Assembly: GCA_964356915.1 (NCBI GenBank)
Contig: CAYHJF010000001.1
Coordinates: 146,200 to 210,199 of the forward strand
Reading direction: 5' to 3'
DNA: 64,000 nucleotides
DNA from: an uncultured Candidatus Saccharibacteria bacterium
GTDB taxonomy: Bacteria > Patescibacteriota > Minisyncoccia > Ryanbacterales > GWA2-47-10b
Shown here: positions 3,102-41,202 of the stretch, in pieces
Layout of the letters: the number at the start of each line of letters is the position of its first letter
Numbering within the stretch: the first letter of the stretch is position 1
Position numbers and translations under genes: made by a program
The notes under the pieces: model-generated
Database searches by the model: none
What the model was told of the DNA's origin: nothing
What the model saw: only the letters and a program-made list of their open reading frames with translations

Positions 3102-3607
3102 AGCGCTGCAATTGACATAGTAATCTGAGTTGAATTCGCAAGGATTGAAAGTTGGTTAATCGTTATAAAAAAGCGTTCATTTTCAAGCTCGCGGAGCATT
3201 CTAATAACATTTGTATAGGAACCATTAACTGTCAAACTTACGCCCACCTTCCCTGCCTCAAGTGCTCCTGGTGGAGTGATGGATACCTGCCCAAGATTGT
3301 TCCGCTTGATAATTTCATCGATAAATAAAACGAGCTCGAGTTCTTTTTTATCATCGTTCGCGATGAAAAATAAATTCTCAATCTTCGTAATATCTTTTTG
3401 CGCATCCTCATACTCTGGTAAAATTTGTCCGCGATATGCTCGTAACTCTTGTTCCGTTGTCCGAATCTCTTTTTCCATCTCAAAAAATTTATTTGATAAT
3501 GGAAAAATCTGGTAAAAAACAAGATACGCAAATACCGCACAAAGTGCCGCGTTTGCTAGCACGACACCCGCAGTCGTCAAAATAAATTTTTTCTGAATAG
3601 GCATCAT
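3098..3607 (-). CDS. pilO: type IV pilus assembly protein PilO-like
   Basis: N-terminal TM followed by coiled-coil (EKEIRTTEQELRAYRGQILP). Size and position after the pilN-like gene. 4-nt overlaps with neighbours. Confidence 0.5.
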   Translation of the reverse strand: MMPIQKKFILTTAGVVLANAALCAVFAYLVFYQIFPLSNKFFEMEKEIRTTEQELRAYRGQILPEYEDAQKDITKIENLFFIANDDKKELELVLFIDEIIKRNNLGQVSITPPGALEAGKVGVSLTVNGSYTNVIRMLRELENERFFITINQLSILANSTQITMSIAAL

Positions 3608-4152
3608 AACTGTATACGAAGCGTAAGATTAAAATCAGCGTTCTGCTCTTTTAAAATGTTTGTTACTGGGGAATCGTATGATTTTACCTTTGGATGAGCT
3701 TTGAGTGCATCAAAAAAGCTCAAAAAAGAGGAGCGCGTATTCGCAATGCCCGACAATTTGATTACACCTCCCGGCTTACCATCAACCTGCGCCCGATCAA
3801 GCTCAATACTCGTGAGATGAATATCGGAGCCAACTTTATTTATGATTTCTTCTAAAGATCTCATCACTGGTAACGTATCTTTCCCATACCCAGCAACATT
3901 TCGTAATAACGTATTTACTTTACCAAGTCGCTTTCCTGTCTCATCAAGCTCTTTAAATTCCTGACTTTTCTGAATCGATGAGAGGTAATCCTGTTTTGCG
4001 TCAAAACGAAATGTAAGGGCAAAAAATGAAGGTAACAAAAGTAAATCTCCCGCGAGTGCGACCACGCCAAAATAAAGTCCAAATGTAACAACATATCGCC
4101 GCCACGCCTCATACCGAAGTTCTTTTTTATATGAATCAGGAAGTAAGTTCAT
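3604..4152 (-). CDS. pilN: type IV pilus assembly protein PilN-like
   Basis: Short cytoplasmic N-terminus (MNLLPDSYKKELRYEAWRRY) then a TM then periplasmic domain, the classic PilN architecture. Immediately follows pilM. Confidence 0.55.
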   Translation of the reverse strand: MNLLPDSYKKELRYEAWRRYVVTFGLYFGVVALAGDLLLLPSFFALTFRFDAKQDYLSSIQKSQEFKELDETGKRLGKVNTLLRNVAGYGKDTLPVMRSLEEIINKVGSDIHLTSIELDRAQVDGKPGGVIKLSGIANTRSSFLSFFDALKAHPKVKSYDSPVTNILKEQNADFNLTLRIQL

Positions 4153-21020: not shown

Positions 21021-22550
21021 ATGGAACCCCTCACACAACTATTGGTTGTGGCGGCGGTTTTTCTCGTGGGATCGGGAATCGGATACTTCACGCGAAAAAT
21101 TGTTGCTCAACAACAGAAAAATTCGATCGAGCTATCGATCAAAAAGGCGACCCTCGAAGCTGAGAACGAAGCTCAGCGAATTGTCTTAGAAGCAAAAGAA
21201 AAAGCGACAAAGATCCTCGATGAGATAAAAGACGAGGAAAAAATTCGCGAAGCAGAGTACCACAAACGCGAAGAGCGCTTTGCAAAAAAAGAAGAGCAGT
21301 TTGAAGATAAAGCTCAAGACTTAGAAAAAGAAAAGAAAGATCTCCGAGAAAAAGTAGAGCGTGTTCGTGGCGCACAAGAAGCGCTCAAGCTCAAAGAAGA
21401 AGAGAAGCGTCTTGAACTCGAGCGTGTCGCGGGACTTTCTCGCGAAGAAGCCAAAGATACGCTGTATGCTGCAGTTGAAAAAGATTATGAAGGAGACCTT
21501 CTCGAACGCCTCCATAAACTCGAAATGACTGGTGAAGAGCGCCTGCAACGAAAAGCGCGCGACATTCTGGCATCTCTCATTCAACGCATTGCCACCTCAA
21601 CGGCATCCGAAGTTACAACAACAAGCATTACAATTCCGTCAGAAGATCTCAAAGGGAAAATCATTGGACGTGAAGGACGAAACATTCGTTCACTTGAGCG
21701 TGCCGCGGGTGTAGAGATTATTGTTGATGACACGCCCGGAGCAATCATTATTTCTGGATTTGATCCTGTCCGCCGTCACATTGCAAAAATGGCGCTTGAA
21801 GATTTGATTACCGATGGTCGCATCCAACCAGCAAAGATTGAGGAAGCGGTTGAAAAAGCAAAATCGCAAATTGAAAAAATAATGAAAGAAGCTGCGGAAG
21901 CTGCAGCATACGAAGTCGGAGTCTTTGACCTCGATCCTCGGCTCATGCAACTTTTAGGTAGACTTCGCTTTCGCACAAGCTATGGTCAAAATGTCCTCCA
22001 GCACTCAATCGAAATGTCTCACCTCTCTGGAATGCTCGCGAGCGAACTTGGCGCCGATGTTGGCGTCGCAAAAAAAGGAGCGCTCTTGCATGACATCGGA
22101 AAGGCAGTTGATCATGAAGTACAAGGAACTCACGTTGAAATCGGTCGACGTATTCTTCAAAAATTTGGCGTTGAATTGCCCGTTATTCAGGCGATGCAAT
22201 CACACCATGAAGAATATCCATACGAAACACTTGAATCAATCATCGTCCAAACCGCTGATGCAATCTCCGCTTCCCGCCCTGGTGCGCGCCGCGACTCTGT
22301 AGAAAATTATCTCAAGCGACTCGAAGATCTTGAATCAATCGCAACTTCTTTTGACGGAGTTGAAAAATCATATGCAATTCAAGCAGGTCGCGAAATCCGA
22401 GTGTTCGTAACGCCAGATAAAATAAATGATCTTGAAGCTCGCGCGATCGCTCGACAAATCGCAGACCGCGTAGAACAAGAACTCAAGTATCCGGGTGAAA
22501 TCAAAGTTGTCGTCATTCGTGAAAATCGCGTCATCGAATACGCTCGCTAA
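21021..22550 (+). CDS. rny: ribonuclease Y
   Basis: N-terminal TM, long K/E-rich coiled coil, KH domain (IIGREGRNIRSLE), HD domain (LLHDIGKAVDHE). 509 aa. Confidence 0.85.
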   Translation: MEPLTQLLVVAAVFLVGSGIGYFTRKIVAQQQKNSIELSIKKATLEAENEAQRIVLEAKEKATKILDEIKDEEKIREAEYHKREERFAKKEEQFEDKAQDLEKEKKDLREKVERVRGAQEALKLKEEEKRLELERVAGLSREEAKDTLYAAVEKDYEGDLLERLHKLEMTGEERLQRKARDILASLIQRIATSTASEVTTTSITIPSEDLKGKIIGREGRNIRSLERAAGVEIIVDDTPGAIIISGFDPVRRHIAKMALEDLITDGRIQPAKIEEAVEKAKSQIEKIMKEAAEAAAYEVGVFDLDPRLMQLLGRLRFRTSYGQNVLQHSIEMSHLSGMLASELGADVGVAKKGALLHDIGKAVDHEVQGTHVEIGRRILQKFGVELPVIQAMQSHHEEYPYETLESIIVQTADAISASRPGARRDSVENYLKRLEDLESIATSFDGVEKSYAIQAGREIRVFVTPDKINDLEARAIARQIADRVEQELKYPGEIKVVVIRENRVIEYAR

Positions 22551-22598: not shown

Positions 22599-22617
22599 AT
22601 AAAATTCAAAATAAAAA

Positions 22618-22835
22618 AAAGTCCGGTGCGGCTGCTCGCTTGTAGCGAGACAGCCGCCCGGGGTTCAGATCTTGTCGTCCTGGCTAGACGACGTTCTTCT
22701 CGGCGAGCCAGCCGGACTTGGTGGTCAGGGTGGCGGCCGGTTCACGGGCTCGGGCCATGGAGACCTCCTCGTGAAGAGCGCTCGAGAGCGCCAGTTCGGG
22801 GAACAGGTACGTTTGTAATCTTACGACATCTTAAA
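22618..22835 (+). ncRNA. candidate structured ncRNA (GC-rich non-coding island, identity unknown)
   Basis: About 215 nt at roughly 65% GC in a roughly 45% GC genome. No credible ORF on either strand (translations are Arg/Trp-rich nonsense). Multiple perfect nested stems: gcggctg-ctcgct-tgt-agcgag-a-cagccgc, gtcgtc-ctggcta-gacgac, gcgctc/gagcgc. Confidence 0.35.
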
Positions 22836-22970: not shown

Positions 22971-23243
22971 ATGAATAAAGGCGATCTCGTCGAATCAGTA
23001 TTCAACAAAATTGGAGGCACAAAGAAAGGAGCCGAAGAAGCAGTTGAAACAGTTTTCGACACAATCACAAAAGCACTTTCAAAAGGTGACGAGGTAGCAG
23101 TATCAGGCTTCGGTACGTTTCTTGTAAAGAAACGCCAAGCTCGCACTGCTCGCAACCCTCGCACCGGAGCAACGGTTCATGTACCTGCAACACAGGTTCC
23201 AAAGTTCCGTCCAGGCAAAGGCCTCAAAGAAGCAGTTAAGTAA
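22971..23243 (+). CDS. hupA: DNA-binding protein HU
   Basis: MNKGDLVESV...VSGFGTFLVKKRQARTARNPRTGATVHVPA: full HU/IHF family signature including the Arg-rich beta-arm. 90 aa. Confidence 0.85.
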   Translation: MNKGDLVESVFNKIGGTKKGAEEAVETVFDTITKALSKGDEVAVSGFGTFLVKKRQARTARNPRTGATVHVPATQVPKFRPGKGLKEAVK

Positions 23244-36754: not shown

Positions 36755-38164
36755 TCATCGAGGTAACCCTCGACTCACGTCTTTTTTGATAAAGAGCACG
36801 TAACCATCCGAGGCAACGCCCACGACCGAAAGATCGATTTTGGCGCCACGCTCCATCCATTCGTCCTCGAGCGGGTAATGGTAAAACCCTGAGTAGATGG
36901 TTCGTCCATCGACATCCCAGACCGTGAGGTGTAAAGATGTCGGTTCACGACCATCAAGGGTTATGATTTTCCACTGAGTCCGCGTAAATGAAACGTCGAG
37001 CTCGCGCAACGGCTCCTCGAGACGAAATACGTACCGCACGATGGAGCCAACTTCCGCCACATCGACAGCTTGATGATACACATCAAGGCTTGCGAGTGAC
37101 ACAGATGCTGGAGCTCGATATGGAACATCCGGCTTCCAAAGAGGATCTTTCATCATGATGACGTATAGAACGGCAATCACCATGAGTGCTCCGACGACGA
37201 ATCGACGAAATCCTGAAGATCTTACGAGAGCCGTCATGATAATGACGACGATGAGTACCGTGAATACAATTATATATGGCACATCACCGACCTCACTAAG
37301 GCGCTGCCTCATTCTTTCAATGAACGGACGTGGATCGCCGAGATCTAAGTCCGGCATCGTTGGGAATGAAATGTGAGGCATTGCTGGCAACGAAACACTT
37401 GGAAGAGAAATATGAGGAAGCTCTGTAGGAAGATAGCTCGTCGGGTCCTTATACCCGTATTTCGCGCGAATATCTCGCTCCATTTGTGGAAGCTTCTCGA
37501 GAATCTGTATTTGCTCTGGCGAGAGCGACTTTATCTTTGCCGTCTCACGCAATGCCTTACCAATCGCTCGGAGAGGATCAAGCTCGCGCTCCATTTGAGC
37601 ATGCTTAACCTCAAGAACAACATCATCGGTAAACATTCCACCGAAAAGCCCGCATGACTTTACGATGAAGAGCATCCCAATGATTACGGAAAGTGCGATC
37701 ATCCAGCGTCGCGCGGGATGCGTTTCCCACTCACGCGGAAGACTGAGCCCCCACGCAACAAGAAACATCAAAACCGCAAGCACAAGCCAGAGTGGGCTGT
37801 AGTTATGCCACGCCCACGGCAACAATTGCCATGCGCCAACAGTCACAAGAATAATCGCGCCCGCAAGAATAATTCCGTTTCTGCGAGGAGCAATTGTCGC
37901 CCATGCAGCCCCGAACGCTCCTCCAATACGCGACCGTATTGATACACGCGGAGTTGAAACAATAACCGGAGCTGGCACTGGCATTACTGCCGGCGTAGAC
38001 GCAATACTAGATGCTCGTGAAGACGGCTGCTGACCACGATTTGATACCGTGAGATCCCATAGCCGCACAACAATCGCACCACCAACAACAAGTACAGCAA
38101 TTACTGTAAAGAAAATCTCCATTACGGAGTCCCTCCACTCGTAGGCGTCCCGCCACTCTTCCAA
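36755..38164 (-). CDS. polytopic membrane protein, hypothetical (469 aa)
   Basis: Multiple TM helices, Pro-rich linker, C-terminal soluble domain. No motif recognised. Confidence 0.4.
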   Translation of the reverse strand: MEEWRDAYEWRDSVMEIFFTVIAVLVVGGAIVVRLWDLTVSNRGQQPSSRASSIASTPAVMPVPAPVIVSTPRVSIRSRIGGAFGAAWATIAPRRNGIILAGAIILVTVGAWQLLPWAWHNYSPLWLVLAVLMFLVAWGLSLPREWETHPARRWMIALSVIIGMLFIVKSCGLFGGMFTDDVVLEVKHAQMERELDPLRAIGKALRETAKIKSLSPEQIQILEKLPQMERDIRAKYGYKDPTSYLPTELPHISLPSVSLPAMPHISFPTMPDLDLGDPRPFIERMRQRLSEVGDVPYIIVFTVLIVVIIMTALVRSSGFRRFVVGALMVIAVLYVIMMKDPLWKPDVPYRAPASVSLASLDVYHQAVDVAEVGSIVRYVFRLEEPLRELDVSFTRTQWKIITLDGREPTSLHLTVWDVDGRTIYSGFYHYPLEDEWMERGAKIDLSVVGVASDGYVLFIKKDVSRGLPR

Positions 38165-39624
38165 CGCTTCATCATACCTCCGATAAGACTGGTAACCCGC
38201 CCAATTGCGGCCGACACTTTCGATTTCTTGGGATCCTTCTTCTTAACCGTCTCGAACACTTTCGTCGCTTGAGCGGTAAGAGCGCCGATACTAAGAGGTC
38301 CGCCACCATCTCCCGAGTTAATGACGACAGCAACATTACCTTCCTTGATCGCGTCCATTTGACGCTCGAGGAGGCCCAGCGTTGCAGCCTGCTCAGGAGA
38401 AAGACCAGCACCATCTCGAATCTTGGTAATCCGAGCGGCTTCACCTTCGCCCTCAAGTTCGCGGCGTACTTTTTCGGCAGCACCGAGTCGTTCGATACCA
38501 CGTCCTTCGCCGTCAGCCTCGAGGAAACGAGCGTCGCCCGTTGCCCGCCCTTGGATGCGCTTGCGTCGCGCTTCTTCGGTTGCCTTACTAAGCACAACGT
38601 CAACGATCATGAAGCGCTTCAGTTTGATACCCCACTCATTGAGTTGAGCCTCTACTGAAGCGCAGATCTGCGAGTTAAGTGAACTTTCTTTTTCTTTCTT
38701 ACCATCGTCCTTGTTATCAATAATTTTCGCCACCTTCTCAGCAAGCACATCATCAACGTTCATGCCACCGAGCATTGTACGAATACGATCCTCGATCATT
38801 GAGAGAACGGCATGGATATAATCATCGACAAGATATGTAGCCTCAAAAGCTGATTTCTGATCGCGACGGTACTCGACCTCAATGATCAATTCACACTTGA
38901 GACCAACCGTATCATCAGCGACATCAACCTGACTCCGGAACTCAACTTTCGAATCCTTTCCGTCACGCCTGAGCTCTCTTTGAAGTGCGATCTCTTCTTC
39001 TGTTGTCCCTTCGGGGAAACCAAGAAGCCACAATGTCAATTTGCGATCTCCGATATAGAGCCGCTTCTTTACGTAGAAGATTCCAGGGATAATGAGATAG
39101 AATCCCTGTGGAAGAGTCTTGCAATAGATACCAAAGAGCTCAACCACATCAACGTATTGTTGAGGAATGATACGTGCACATCCATAGAAAAAAACAGCGA
39201 AAACGATAGCAGGCCATACTTTTGCCGCGCCCGAGAGAAAAAATACTCCCGCGATCGCAAACAAAAATAAAATACCCACTATGGTAAATGAAAAACGCAT
39301 CCAAATCTTCGGCAGAAAACCAAAACCCTGATCCTCTGTATCCAGAAGAGTGGGATTTTTTTTGTGACGATGCCACATGTAGAACCCGCCAAAAGCAAAT
39401 ACCAATGCTGTCACTTCGAACAAGAAGAATGGTGAATATGAATCTTTCACCCACCATGCAAGAAATACAGCTATACCCATAAGAAGACCATCGATAATAA
39501 TCTGCCAACGTTTCATAGATGCCTTTGCACCCACAAGAAGACCATCGACAATCATATGCCAACGTTTCATAGATGCCTTTGCACCCACAAGAAGACCATC
39601 GACAATCATATGCCAACGTTTCAT
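38122..39624 (-). CDS. SPFH/band-7 (flotillin-like) membrane protein with tandemly repeated N-terminus
   Basis: Two TM helices. SPFH core (YVDVVELFGIYCKTLPQGFYLIIPG...). C-terminal coiled-coil E/A/R-rich flotillin-like tail. Three in-frame MKRW(H/Q)(M/I)I(V/I)DGLL starts; the likely true start is the third (about 39516). Confidence 0.55.
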   Translation of the reverse strand: MKRWHMIVDGLLVGAKASMKRWHMIVDGLLVGAKASMKRWQIIIDGLLMGIAVFLAWWVKDSYSPFFLFEVTALVFAFGGFYMWHRHKKNPTLLDTEDQGFGFLPKIWMRFSFTIVGILFLFAIAGVFFLSGAAKVWPAIVFAVFFYGCARIIPQQYVDVVELFGIYCKTLPQGFYLIIPGIFYVKKRLYIGDRKLTLWLLGFPEGTTEEEIALQRELRRDGKDSKVEFRSQVDVADDTVGLKCELIIEVEYRRDQKSAFEATYLVDDYIHAVLSMIEDRIRTMLGGMNVDDVLAEKVAKIIDNKDDGKKEKESSLNSQICASVEAQLNEWGIKLKRFMIVDVVLSKATEEARRKRIQGRATGDARFLEADGEGRGIERLGAAEKVRRELEGEGEAARITKIRDGAGLSPEQAATLGLLERQMDAIKEGNVAVVINSGDGGGPLSIGALTAQATKVFETVKKKDPKKSKVSAAIGRVTSLIGGMMKRWKSGGTPTSGGTP

Positions 39625-39650
39625 AGACGCCTTTCTTGCCCTTTATCACG
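39490..39650. repeat. three tandem copies of a 54-bp repeat covering the SPFH gene start and RBS region
   Basis: ccaacgtttcatagatgcctttgcacccacaagaagaccatcgacaatcatatg unit. Period exactly 54 (copies anchored at 39505, 39559, 39613). The third copy is diverged (gacgcctttcttgccc). Confidence 0.7.
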
Positions 39651-39727
39651 TCAAAGAGCTTTGCACTACTATATAAGGCTTTTTCTTATTTGTCAAGGTC
39701 TTTTCTGGCGCCTTCACGAAGAAAGGA

Positions 39728-39756
39728 TTGACAAATAGGATAAATAATGCTAATAT
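39728..39756 (+). promoter_or_regulatory. near-consensus sigma-70 promoter (TTGACA - 17 nt - TAATAT) driving the GC-rich non-coding region
   Basis: TTGACA at 39728-39733, 17-nt spacer, TAATAT at 39751-39756. Confidence 0.55.
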
Positions 39757-39764
39757 ATTTATCG

Positions 39765-40306
39765 AGAGCAAGGACTGCCCAAATTCTTATATAAATTAAA
39801 TAATCTTGGGCTCTTTCCTTGCTCCATCATGAAACCTAATAAACACAGAAATTGGGTTGCGCGATGGAGCTGGGGGAATATACTAGCTCTAGACTTGGTG
39901 AGGGGACTCGAGCCTCTCCCAAGGTGGGGGTCTACTATGGTCAGCGAGTGGTCTCGTCGAGCAGCGCGAGGACATGCGCGCTTCGACTCAGCGATCGTCC
40001 AGAAGCGCGAACGCGTCACTGAACGAATCGCACCCACAACCAGCGGACAGCTCGCTGGAGCGCACCCGGGGCAGACTGCCAAAACGGCTGCCACCACCAC
40101 ACACAAGCGTCCTCCTCAGTAGGACGCCCCTCCACGCCCGGCCTTCAGGGGGCCGAATCATCAGTCGGAGAAACCCGACCGAATAGAGGCGCTCACCCGG
40201 CGCCCAAAAGCAGATCGATACACTGTACAAAGTATCGGCGGAAGAGTGCCCCGCCAAGGCATTCAAAAAAAAGGGGGACCTGCGCAAGCGGGCCCCCATT
40301 TTTCTT
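39765..40306 (+). ncRNA. candidate large structured ncRNA (about 520 nt, GC-rich, unidentified) with its own promoter and terminator
   Basis: No protein-like ORF on either strand. Sharp GC rise. At least 8 perfect local hairpins (gctccatc/gatggagc, gcgtcct-cctcagt-aggacgc, ggcgc-tcacccg-gcgcc, cgatac-actgtacaaa-gtatcg and others). Upstream consensus promoter, terminal terminator. Confidence 0.4.
40272..40306. terminator. bidirectional GC-clamp terminator (ends the ncRNA candidate on plus and xer on minus)
   Basis: aaaaaaaa-ggggg-acctgcgcaagcgggc-ccccc-attttt. Confidence 0.6.
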
Positions 40307-40326
40307 TGTAAAAAATTTTTGAAAAA

Positions 40327-41202
40327 CTACTTTCTTCTACGTCCGTGAAATGCCTTGTGCACATCTCGTAACTGCCGATCGGTTACGTGCGTATAAATTT
40401 GTGTCGTCGTAATCGATGAGTGCCCCAACAGTGCCTGTACCGATCGAAGATCCGCGCCATTGATAAGTAAGTCAGTCGCAAACATATGACGCAGCGTATG
40501 AGGTGTTACCTTTGACCCAATACCAGCAGCAATCGCATATCTATGTACAAGACGCTCAATTTGCCGAACTGTAAGGCGAGTTGGTTTTTTTCCTGTAGCA
40601 ACAAATAATGCCTCTAAAATATCTTCTCGGCGAGCAAAATAATCTTTCAAAATCTGCTTTGCTTCAGAAGAAAGAAAAACAAGGCGCACCTTTCCACCTT
40701 TCCCGCGAACAGAAAATTCATCTCGTTTGAGATCGATGGAATCTTGATTAAGGGCAACGAGTTCAGAGATTCGAAGACCCGTAGAAAACAAAAGCTCTAA
40801 AATCGCACGGTCTCGCAACCCCTGCAACGTCGATGTTTTTGGCGTAGCAAGTAATCGTTCAAGATCTTCAATGCGCGGGATATCAATGTCTCGATCCTGA
40901 AGTTTTGCAAGTTCTATTCGATCGGGTGCAAGTGATACTATCTCTCGGCGTACAAGATATTTTAGAAATTGCCTCAACGCGATGAGATGATAATTACGCG
41001 TACGAACAGAAAGATGCTCTCGATTGAGCCACAATCGAAAAGCGCGTATATGATCATCATTAATATCGGCAGGGGATTCTATCTGCTCCCGCAAAAAAAA
41101 TCGTTCGAGGTAATGACGATAATTTTCAATCGTTTTTTGAGACCTTCCGCGCCCAAGCTCGAGGTCTTCAAGAAACTCTCGGAGAGCAATCTTAATATTC
41201 AT
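40327..41202 (-). CDS. xerC: tyrosine site-specific recombinase, XerC/XerD family
   Basis: N-terminal SAM-like core-binding domain. Catalytic R...HxxR...Y (GLRISEL, HTLRHMFAT, LGHSSITTTQIYTHV). 291 aa. Confidence 0.8.
   Translation of the reverse strand: MNIKIALREFLEDLELGRGRSQKTIENYRHYLERFFLREQIESPADINDDHIRAFRLWLNREHLSVRTRNYHLIALRQFLKYLVRREIVSLAPDRIELAKLQDRDIDIPRIEDLERLLATPKTSTLQGLRDRAILELLFSTGLRISELVALNQDSIDLKRDEFSVRGKGGKVRLVFLSSEAKQILKDYFARREDILEALFVATGKKPTRLTVRQIERLVHRYAIAAGIGSKVTPHTLRHMFATDLLINGADLRSVQALLGHSSITTTQIYTHVTDRQLRDVHKAFHGRRRK

Follow-up and report, generated by a model that had tools for sequence, protein, structure and literature searches.

Structured 5′ untranslated regions (UTRs) are known to stabilise bacterial messenger RNAs (mRNAs) or to gate their Shine-Dalgarno (SD) sequences, as exemplified by the ompA-type 5′-terminal stem-loops and by SD-sequestering leaders or RNA thermometers such as ROSE and fourU. 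Dual-function RNAs such as SgrS/SgrT, RNAIII/hld and SR1/SR1P carry a small open reading frame (ORF), and integron cassettes as well as IMEX elements, which integrate at dif sites through Xer recombinases, are established forms of mobile DNA. Furthermore, bacteria produce small basic or arginine-rich proteins from stand-alone small ORFs, among them DUF1127 proteins such as YjiS, as described in two reports (PMC11707872, PMC12501420). Here we analyze a GC-rich unit located beside the recombinase gene xer in a stretch of 64,000 nucleotides (nt) from an uncultured Candidatus Saccharibacteria bacterium (GenBank assembly GCA_964356915.1, contig CAYHJF010000001.1, positions 146,200 to 210,199). The whole stretch is referred to as the window and all positions are counted from its first letter. 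Its source population are Patescibacteria (Candidate Phyla Radiation) of the Hainich groundwater, and the xer protein is found exactly in the ENA contigs Hain_H41 (L001, L002) and in an NCBI metagenome-assembled genome. Judged from sequence, we lean toward reading the unit as a monocistronic, independently transcribed and highly structured mRNA of ~545 nt for an orphan, fast-evolving basic protein of 61 residues.

The stand-alone small ORF and the structured 5′ UTR are familiar as kinds, while the peptide families and the leader motif of this unit are undescribed in the libraries searched. The predicted product resembles the DUF1127/YjiS small proteins in comprising fewer than 70 residues, in being strongly basic and arginine-rich, in having a small transcription unit of its own and in being easily mis-called by annotation. 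In contrast to DUF1127, it lacks a Pfam or NCBIfam match, occurs in one Patescibacteria clade only, and its subgroups have diverged past alignment. The 5′ part of the unit is reminiscent of ompA, ROSE and fourU leaders: a stem-loop lies a few nt from the inferred 5′ end, a UCCUUGC strand is complementary to the SD region and a hairpin abuts the SD. However, with ~175 nt the window leader is much longer than typical thermometers such as ROSE and fourU and has no Rfam match, and its alternative pairing is predicted. Like SgrS/SgrT, RNAIII/hld and SR1/SR1P, the unit would give rise to a structured transcript of several hundred nt with its own promoter and terminator and a short frame (its translation being predicted), and the RNA is better conserved than the peptide; yet it shares no homology with these RNAs and offers no candidate for a base-pairing target, seed region or chaperone. 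The large RNAs OLE, ROOL, GOLLD, HEARO and raiA have in common with it a length of 400-550 nt, a GC content above that of the genome, many helices and an own promoter and terminator. It differs from them in the lack of a covariance-model match, in its local hairpins lined up as beads on a string, in a conserved, SD-preceded ORF and in its very narrow distribution. Finally, integron cassettes and IMEX elements are similar in being variable short DNA that adjoins a tyrosine recombinase gene, whereas the unit follows xer on its downstream side in convergent orientation, possesses its own promoter, lacks attC- or dif-like border repeats, occupies one fixed syntenic slot and is apparently inherited vertically.

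Results

The sequence anatomy of the unit, its clade-wide architecture, the covariation of its leader and the protein-level similarity of its ORF to that of one relative (L168) were established directly. An earlier interpretation, made from the letters of the window without database searches (the sequence-only reading), had proposed a non-coding transcript unit of ~520 nt at this place. The idea of a self-contained, structured unit outside the known RNA families stood, while its non-coding character did not: a non-coding unit is unlikely, as each relative with the unit has an SD-preceded ORF of 60-80 codons there and the ORF of L168 is similar at the protein level.

The related loci (designated L) were anchored on xer. 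A first set comprised 160 such loci from GTDB genomes and JGI metagenomes, and searches of these 160 loci with the unit (nhmmer, blastn, tblastx) yielded no homologue. Homologues surfaced only in the closest relatives, with 72-76% xer identity, which are represented by contigs of the Logan and ENA assemblies; among the xer homologues in a collection of 5.8 billion proteins, there is a gap between 100% and 76% identity. L163-L175 all preserve the gene order pnp-NYN-rpsO-xer-[unit]-Band_7. When the slot was scanned in loci with an xer at least 68% identical, 16 of 17 showed a gap of 350-920 nt and, within it, an ORF of 60-82 codons that converges on xer, follows an SD and encodes 13-24% arginine plus lysine. 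The remaining locus, L171 (which equals the contig sequence of L172-L174), was misread by the scan, while direct reading gives an ORF of 65 codons. An equivalent unit thus flanks xer in all clade members examined, and promoter, leader, SD, arginine-rich ORF, 3′ hairpins and terminator form their common layout. If xer is less than 63% identical, the gap mostly measures just 3-60 nt. The unit is confined to the clade with at least 68% xer identity and is therefore clade-specific and apparently vertically inherited.

The translations of all six frames of the unit had been regarded as nonsense by the sequence-only reading. This view has to be revised: an SD-like sequence is followed by an ATG at 39937 and a frame of 61 codons, the position and in part the sequence of which are conserved in relatives. 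The SD of the relatives reads AAGAAGGGGGAG, GGGAGG or GGAGGG and is placed at the same distance from the start codons. The predicted product of the window carries a net charge of +7, is hydrophilic, rich in arginine, alanine and threonine, and contains the peptide stretch MVSEWSRRAARGHARFDSAIVQK. Compared with the 64-codon ORF of L168, it reaches a local BLOSUM62 score of 68, while shuffled sequences score 27 +/- 5 and 0 of 2000 attain 68. Among the nine frame pairs of both loci, ORF against ORF is the best, even though alignable nucleotide sequence is limited to 20 nt. The codon alignment covers 57 positions with a nucleotide identity of 44%; the same codon is used at 8 of them and a synonymous one at 11, and the shared peptide type follows the pattern WS.RAAR...R[FY]...P.TS...H.G.T.K. 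AlphaFold2, run on the single sequence of the 61-residue product, predicted a helix at residues 4-31 (predicted local distance difference test, pLDDT, ~90) and a disordered tail. This model is compatible with a small basic helical peptide, yet it constitutes no evidence for one.

Public annotation treats the ORF differently. It lists a 97-residue hypothetical protein (39829-40122, plus strand; NCBI AAB372_01810), the start ATG of which falls inside the leader and lacks a ribosome-binding site. Comparison with the relatives indicates that the internal ATG at 39937 is the likely true start of AAB372_01810. At L168 (3500-3760, minus strand), two overlapping open frames of 82 and 64 codons are found, only the shorter of which resembles the window ORF, while gene callers picked the 82-residue one. 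Another frame of the window, shifted by +1 (ORF 39974-40186), ends with a stop codon at 40184-40186 directly before AGAGGCGCUCA, and the ORFs of L166 and L171 stop likewise (UGA-GAGCGCUCA). A frameshift or pseudogene involving this +1 frame was considered and rejected, since its likeness by eye to RRRRLP...TRLTPAFAG turned out not to be significant (p = 0.15-0.88; hidden Markov model search). The placement of its stop codon may be a coincidence or the trace of an older frame.

The ORFs of other relatives fall into distinct peptide types. L165, L166 and L171 share MAKR...CC.TR.RRRAM...LRRRRLP.G.VE.TRL.PAFAG, with indels in frame and with conserved start and stop, and L169 and L170 have the motif VV[LY]RRRR..DG in common. 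By direct reading, the RRRR run is spelt interchangeably with CGC, CGT, AGG, CGG and CGA across L165, L166, L169, L170 and L171; arginine is kept while its codons vary, which argues for selection on the protein. Homology of the window/L168 peptide to these CC/RRRR peptides was rejected (hhalign probability 0.1). In L003, L004, L005, L083 and L084, the nearest of the 160 loci, the slot contains the same kind of unit, with a promoter, a GC-enriched part of 300-450 nt and a terminator, the sequence of which is unrelated to that of the window. The units of L083, L084 and L004 clearly encode a protein of 60-68 residues, with a strong SD and a conserved C-terminal motif in which L083 and L084 differ by many synonymous changes. 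This slot protein (L004 2330-2690, L083 3890-4240, L084 2370-2730; all minus strand) ends in G[AG]M[GR]VT[KR]VV[NH]P.TRV.V.V.QGK. L004 and L083 agree almost completely in promoter, leader and terminator and have 87% identity in the upstream flank, yet the N-terminal halves of their ORFs cannot be aligned, a case of local hypervariability.

A leader of 112 nt is common to the window and L165, L166, L168 and L171. It begins a few nt past the -10 box and is located between promoter and SD in all five distinct homologues. These five distinct sequences underlie the leader family and form our alignment A5; L175 is nearly identical to L166, and L172-L174 coincide with L171 as stated. The leader of L166 is connected to that of the window by nhmmer with an expectation value (E) of 1.9e-5. 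The structure proposed for the leader consists of the hairpins P1 and P2 (Table 1), and the inverted repeat I1 was recovered here independently in a repeat search. On A5, 92% of the cells are paired, compared with 37-55% if the 3′ partners are slid, and nine pairs are changed on both sides, compared with 0-3 in the slid controls; the observed values were reached by 0 of 500 column shuffles. P2 is 94-100% paired, and six of its pairs covary. An overlap of 4 nt (GCUC) is common to P1 and P2, and the two versions of the structure score alike. Within the unit, support from covariation covers these two leader helices, with the nine compensatory pairs, and is limited to the leader. The covariance model R1 built from the alignment scores the window leader at 95 bits, and its search of 175 loci returned no member beyond the five distinct ones from which it was built. 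Among viral contigs, 73 showed the leader core pattern, and 0 of these 73 is a leader by R1. At the level of sequence comparison, the 5′ leader is a conserved, structured cis RNA with covariation support, and the leader family is real but narrow.

The best conserved part of the leader is the 3′ strand of P1, which reads CUCCUUGCUCCA in four relatives and UUCCUUGCUCCA in the window. Within it, UCCUUGCUCCA is invariant and resembles an anti-Shine-Dalgarno sequence; the invariant core amounts to an 11-mer across all five sequences and to a 12-mer in the four relatives. Direct reading revealed complementarity of this strand to the purine-rich SD region of each homologue, namely CCUUG/CAAGG in the window and UCUCCUU/GGGGAGA in L166 and L171. 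At the position of the third hairpin, P3, hairpins of differing sequence were read in L166, L171, L165, L164 and L083. One relative deviates upstream: in L171 (~3400-3925, minus strand; shared by L172 and L173, with a single-base difference in L174) the sequence in front of the leader is replaced and without TTGACA/TATAAT, and the outer 3 base pairs (bp) of P1 are broken. The slot of L171 spans ~1 kb, and the remainder of the leader is intact, as are ORF and 3′ UTR.

With regard to transcription, most of what the sequence-only reading had noticed was recovered. The promoter pointing into the unit (TTGACA, 17 nt, TAATAT) was found again by a promoter scan, in which 10 of 12 positions match and a TG extension is present; it would place the transcription start at ~39762-39764; TTGACA/TATAAT boxes occur at the equivalent place upstream of the leaders in L165, L166 and L168. 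The described jump in GC content is real as well: 200-nt windows within 39900-40300 reach 0.61-0.65, compared with a mean of 0.448 (standard deviation 0.055) for the 64-kb window, and the run 39851-40276 is the longest and highest of the 64 kb. As to the reported perfect local hairpins, seven with Watson-Crick stems of at least 5 bp and loops of 3-10 nt were counted in 39860-40270, compared with 2.5 +/- 1.3 after dinucleotide shuffling; of 300 shuffled sequences, one reaches seven. In addition, there are a G-U-containing hairpin (39894-39923) and the terminator. The folding z-score of the GC-rich part is -3.85 on the plus strand and -0.06 on the minus strand. For the whole 551 nt a value of -6.6 was obtained, which is inflated because shuffling blends AT-rich with GC-rich parts. 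In minimum-free-energy (MFE) folds, the helices of the GC-rich body are mostly local, forming beads-on-a-string hairpins and no compact multi-junction fold.

A GC-clamped terminator in common with the convergent xer had also been claimed, and direct reading agrees. It lies 20-30 nt from the xer stop and was overlooked by a simple scan because of its bulged A. Since an A-run precedes and a T-run follows it, the terminator is bidirectional and can serve the convergent xer too. Weak Rfam matches at this site are of terminator type only, and equivalent terminators are present in L165, L166, L168 and L171. Upstream of it, the 3′ UTR contains five short GC hairpins, and a further hairpin (40107-40127) encloses the ORF stop codon. 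Direct reading of L166 and L171 shows that their 3′ UTR hairpins have survived both a compensatory change (GCAGC/GCUGC to GUAGC/GCUAC) and a loop swap from UUCG to GAAA, which suggests that stable hairpins themselves are under selection. The window segment AGAGGCGCUCA...GGCGCC resembles the segment that follows the stop codon in L166 and L165.

Table 1. Features of the GC-rich unit and its direct neighbors in the window.
Feature	Position	Strand	Details and basis
Band_7 operon	38122-39624	-	adjoins the GC-rich unit on its 5′ side
Sigma-70-type promoter (predicted)	39728-39756	+	TTGACA, 17-nt spacer with TG extension, TAATAT; promoter scan, 10/12 matches
Structured leader	39761-39873	+	P1 and P2 hairpins; nhmmer, alignment A5, covariation
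P1 hairpin	39766-39782 pairs with 39806-39824	+	AU-rich loop
P2 hairpin	39821-39828 and 39833-39840 pair with 39851-39858 and 39863-39870	+	
P3 hairpin	39894-39923	+	abuts the ribosome-binding site; CUUGG-U-GAGGGG-ACUCGAG-CCUCUC-CCAAG; MFE folds
Shine-Dalgarno-like sequence	39923-39930	+	GGUGGGGG, 6 nt upstream of ATG; read directly
61-codon ORF	39937-40122	+	ATG 39937, TAG 40120-40122 included; predicted product MVSEWSRRAARGHARFDSAIVQKRERVTERIAPTTSGQLAGAHPGQTAKTAATTTHKRPPQ
3′ UTR, ~150 nt	40123-40270	+	five short GC hairpins: 40139-40155, 40164-40179, 40188-40204, 40216-40237, ~40241-40265
Intrinsic terminator	40273-40308	+	GGGGGACCUGCGCAAGCGGGCCCCC and U-run; 10-bp GC stem, GCAA loop, one bulged A; read directly, also in folds
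xer gene	40327-41202	-	convergent to the unit; stop codon 40327-40329

Searches for known RNAs support the earlier statement that the unit matches none of the housekeeping RNAs. Infernal searches against Rfam, the models of 6S, ROOL, GOLLD, OLE and HEARO included, gave no family match for the unit: at the gathering threshold on the whole window, and at E up to 10 on 39600-40400, only transfer RNAs (tRNAs) and hits of terminator type or due to chance, with scores well short of the gathering cut-offs, appeared. Likewise, no family was matched by 16 related loci at the gathering threshold or by the unit of L166. ARAGORN detected eight tRNAs and no transfer-messenger RNA (tmRNA) in the window, in line with the lack of an Rfam tmRNA match. 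The covariance models of RNase P, signal recognition particle (SRP) RNA and 6S RNA matched neither the window nor the 16 related loci, nor 39600-40400 at E up to 10. The same holds for OLE, ROOL, GOLLD, HEARO and raiA in the window and in the L166 unit. On the protein level, all six frames in concatenated form gave no match, and the best profile score among the slot ORFs was that of L169 to Protamine_P2 (E = 0.029), below its cut-off. Blastn of the unit against phage and plasmid collections returned no match, and no direct repeats or dif/att-like sequences flank the unit within 39640-40420. Features of a type I toxin-antitoxin system, with a small hydrophobic membrane toxin and an overlapping antisense RNA, were not found either, the product being hydrophilic (+7) and the promoter scan showing no promoter-like site on the minus strand inside 39800-40300. 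The idea of a protein sponge, built on a repeated loop motif such as CAG, was dropped, as the count of the motif equals the expectation from composition (own calculation).

Discussion

Several observations weigh against the reading of the unit as an mRNA for a small basic protein. The 97-residue ORF as called matches only itself among 5.8 billion clustered proteins, and phmmer recovered for the 61-residue ORF, from 1.84 billion representatives, the ORF itself and one low-complexity match. Neither five frames of the window in Pfam, nor the 61-residue ORF in NCBIfam, nor up to ten slot ORFs of relatives gave a match, with DUF1127, the ribosomal proteins L34/L36/S21 and excisionases included. The GC content of the window ORF is flat across the codon positions (0.66/0.63/0.61), compared with ~0.59/0.38/0.35-0.49 in xer, pnp, Band_7 and a 469-residue ORF. 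By our estimate from base composition (T is scarce on this strand), a frame of 61 codons would stay open without selection in ~1 of 4 cases, and SD, ATG and an open frame alone are weak evidence for coding. Codon changes between L166 and L171 are 10 synonymous and 23 non-synonymous, with 19/13/18 differences by codon position; thus purifying selection over much of the ORF is weak or lacking. Furthermore, the window/L168 type and the CC/RRRR type behind the same leader (L165, L166, L171) are linked by an hhalign probability of 0.1, and pairwise comparison of the two types gives p = 0.27-0.56, except for a nominal p = 0.0035 for window against L166. The leader is hence far better conserved than the product.

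The latter point is an argument that the RNA itself is the functional entity, be it as a cis leader of a new class, as a trans-acting or protein-binding RNA or as a dual-function RNA, with the ORF being secondary or incidental in the window copy. An invariant core and covarying leader helices persist across genomes with ORF products that no longer show a recognizable relationship, the 3′ UTR hairpins of L166 and L171 survive compensatory change and tetraloop swap, and the folding signal is restricted to the plus strand (z -3.85 against ~0), with seven perfect hairpins where 2.5 are expected. The flat codon-position GC and the near-neutral substitutions between the ORFs of L166 and L171 fit as well. 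We nevertheless consider this explanation possible rather than probable, as no clade member departs from the common SD, start, ORF length (60-82 codons) and stop position, amino-acid motifs persist while their codons vary, and the indels among L165, L166 and L171 are in frame. In addition, a cis-regulator would find no downstream gene except the small ORF itself, and no target or partner can be named. A version of it, in which the 112-nt leader with P1, P2, the invariant anti-SD-like UCCUUGCUCCA and its AU-rich loop would be a new cis-regulatory or dual-function RNA of this Patescibacteria clade, with the RNA as the selected entity that gates, or works jointly with, a hypervariable arginine-rich mini-ORF the sequence of which can turn over freely, is suggested here tentatively, and we likewise hold it to be possible rather than probable. 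If the RNA were selected in this way, the body of GC hairpins and the 3′ UTR might additionally serve as an RNA scaffold or sponge. One might also envision that the window copy is a decaying small-protein gene in which only promoter, leader and terminator are intact. Flat codon-position GC, the lack of resemblance to the CC/RRRR proteins that share its leader and a stop of the +1 frame (40184-40186) just before AGAGGCGCUCA, where the ORF of L166 stops, would be in line with such a remnant. However, the frame behind SD and ATG stays open through 61 codons, and almost all of it can be aligned with the intact 64-codon ORF of L168, while the +1 frame shows no significant similarity to the CC/RRRR family (p = 0.15-0.88); we thus regard pseudogenization as unlikely.

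The sequence-only reading had brought up foreign DNA captured by the recombinase, a divergent housekeeping RNA and a large RNA class in the size range of OLE, ROOL and GOLLD as well. Capture beside a tyrosine recombinase, by an IMEX-like insertion at a dif-like site, as an integron-type cassette or as a fragment of a GC-rich gene, is suggested by a GC content ~0.18 above the local background, by slot contents that differ strongly between relatives and by the 'integron integrase' label that NCBI gives to the neighbor. Yet neither homology of any of the six frames, nor a blastn match in phage and plasmid collections, nor flanking direct repeats were found; the unit has its own promoter and terminator, and 0 of 73 viral contigs passed the leader model. 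Since the slot is filled in every clade member examined, with the same architecture and with partly homologous leader, 3′ UTR and ORF, vertical descent with fast divergence fits the data, and we deem capture very unlikely. A divergent tmRNA, RNase P, SRP or 6S RNA of this lineage is the least credible explanation and can practically be dismissed: only size, GC content and the own promoter and terminator speak for it, while no covariance model matches even at E = 10, ARAGORN finds no tmRNA, and syntenic units clearly encode proteins. Moreover, only a narrow clade, with an xer identity of at least 68%, possesses the unit; more than 150 related loci lack it in the slot, and neither nhmmer nor R1 detects it there. 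For the OLE/ROOL/GOLLD-like class, the same failure of the covariance models to match at E = 10 holds.

Returning to the structured mRNA for a basic protein, which we prefer, a mechanism can be sketched. The transcript would run from the promoter at 39728-39756 to the terminator shared with xer, and its first ~110 nt would fold into P1 and P2. The 5′-terminal stem-loop and the string of 3′ hairpins may shield the message from 5′-end-dependent and 3′-5′ exonucleolytic decay. The near-invariant 3′ strand of P1 may be sequestered in P1 or, alternatively, cover the SD, and translation could be controlled in this way. The basic product, in turn, probably binds nucleic acid or another anionic partner. 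The GC excess of the unit is due to arginine, alanine, glycine, proline and threonine codons in the ORF and to GC stems in the UTRs.

With this analysis a false lead is removed, as there is neither a missing housekeeping RNA nor a giant non-coding RNA of the OLE/ROOL type of the Candidate Phyla Radiation at this locus. Instead, an undescribed, clade-restricted small-ORF unit is defined between xer and the Band_7 operon. As this case shows, a small-protein gene can take the form of a hairpin-rich GC island with arginine-rich frames that look like nonsense, and this was seen only with the help of relatives that are ~70-76% identical in the flanking gene. Hardly any work exists on small proteins and regulatory RNAs in Patescibacteria, so that the unit provides a concrete, testable example, albeit one of narrow reach, and the alignment and the covariance model can be used to collect further members.

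Genomic neighborhood

The gene order in the window is Band_7 operon, GC-rich unit, xer, rpsO, NYN-domain gene and pnp. The product of xer is a Xer-type recombinase of 291 residues, labeled 'site-specific tyrosine recombinase/integron integrase' by NCBI, and its gene sits in a conserved rpsO-pnp neighborhood. The region between Band_7 and the unit contains an inverted repeat of 17 nt (39680-39696 / 39728-39744; 88% complementary, 31 nt apart), which spans the -35 boxes of two divergent promoters, that of the Band_7 operon (minus strand) and that of the small-ORF unit (plus strand). This repeat could be a shared operator of both promoters. At the 5′ end of the Band_7 gene, a tandem repeat of 54 nt (39475-39634; three copies, 95% identity) encodes the repeated peptide MKRWHMIVDGLLVGAKAS. 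In L001, which represents another assembly of the same population, only two copies are present, and the copy number is therefore polymorphic.

A second GC-rich intergenic island (~0.58) is located at 22610-22830 (minus strand), between an rny-like gene (21021-22550, plus strand) and an HU-like gene (22971-23243, plus strand). This island has no Rfam match. It comprises GAGGAGG, an ATG and an ORF of 24 codons (MARAREPAATLTTKSGWLAEKNVV), followed by a GC hairpin with a T-run, and thus takes the form of a mini transcription unit in the style of the one beside xer.

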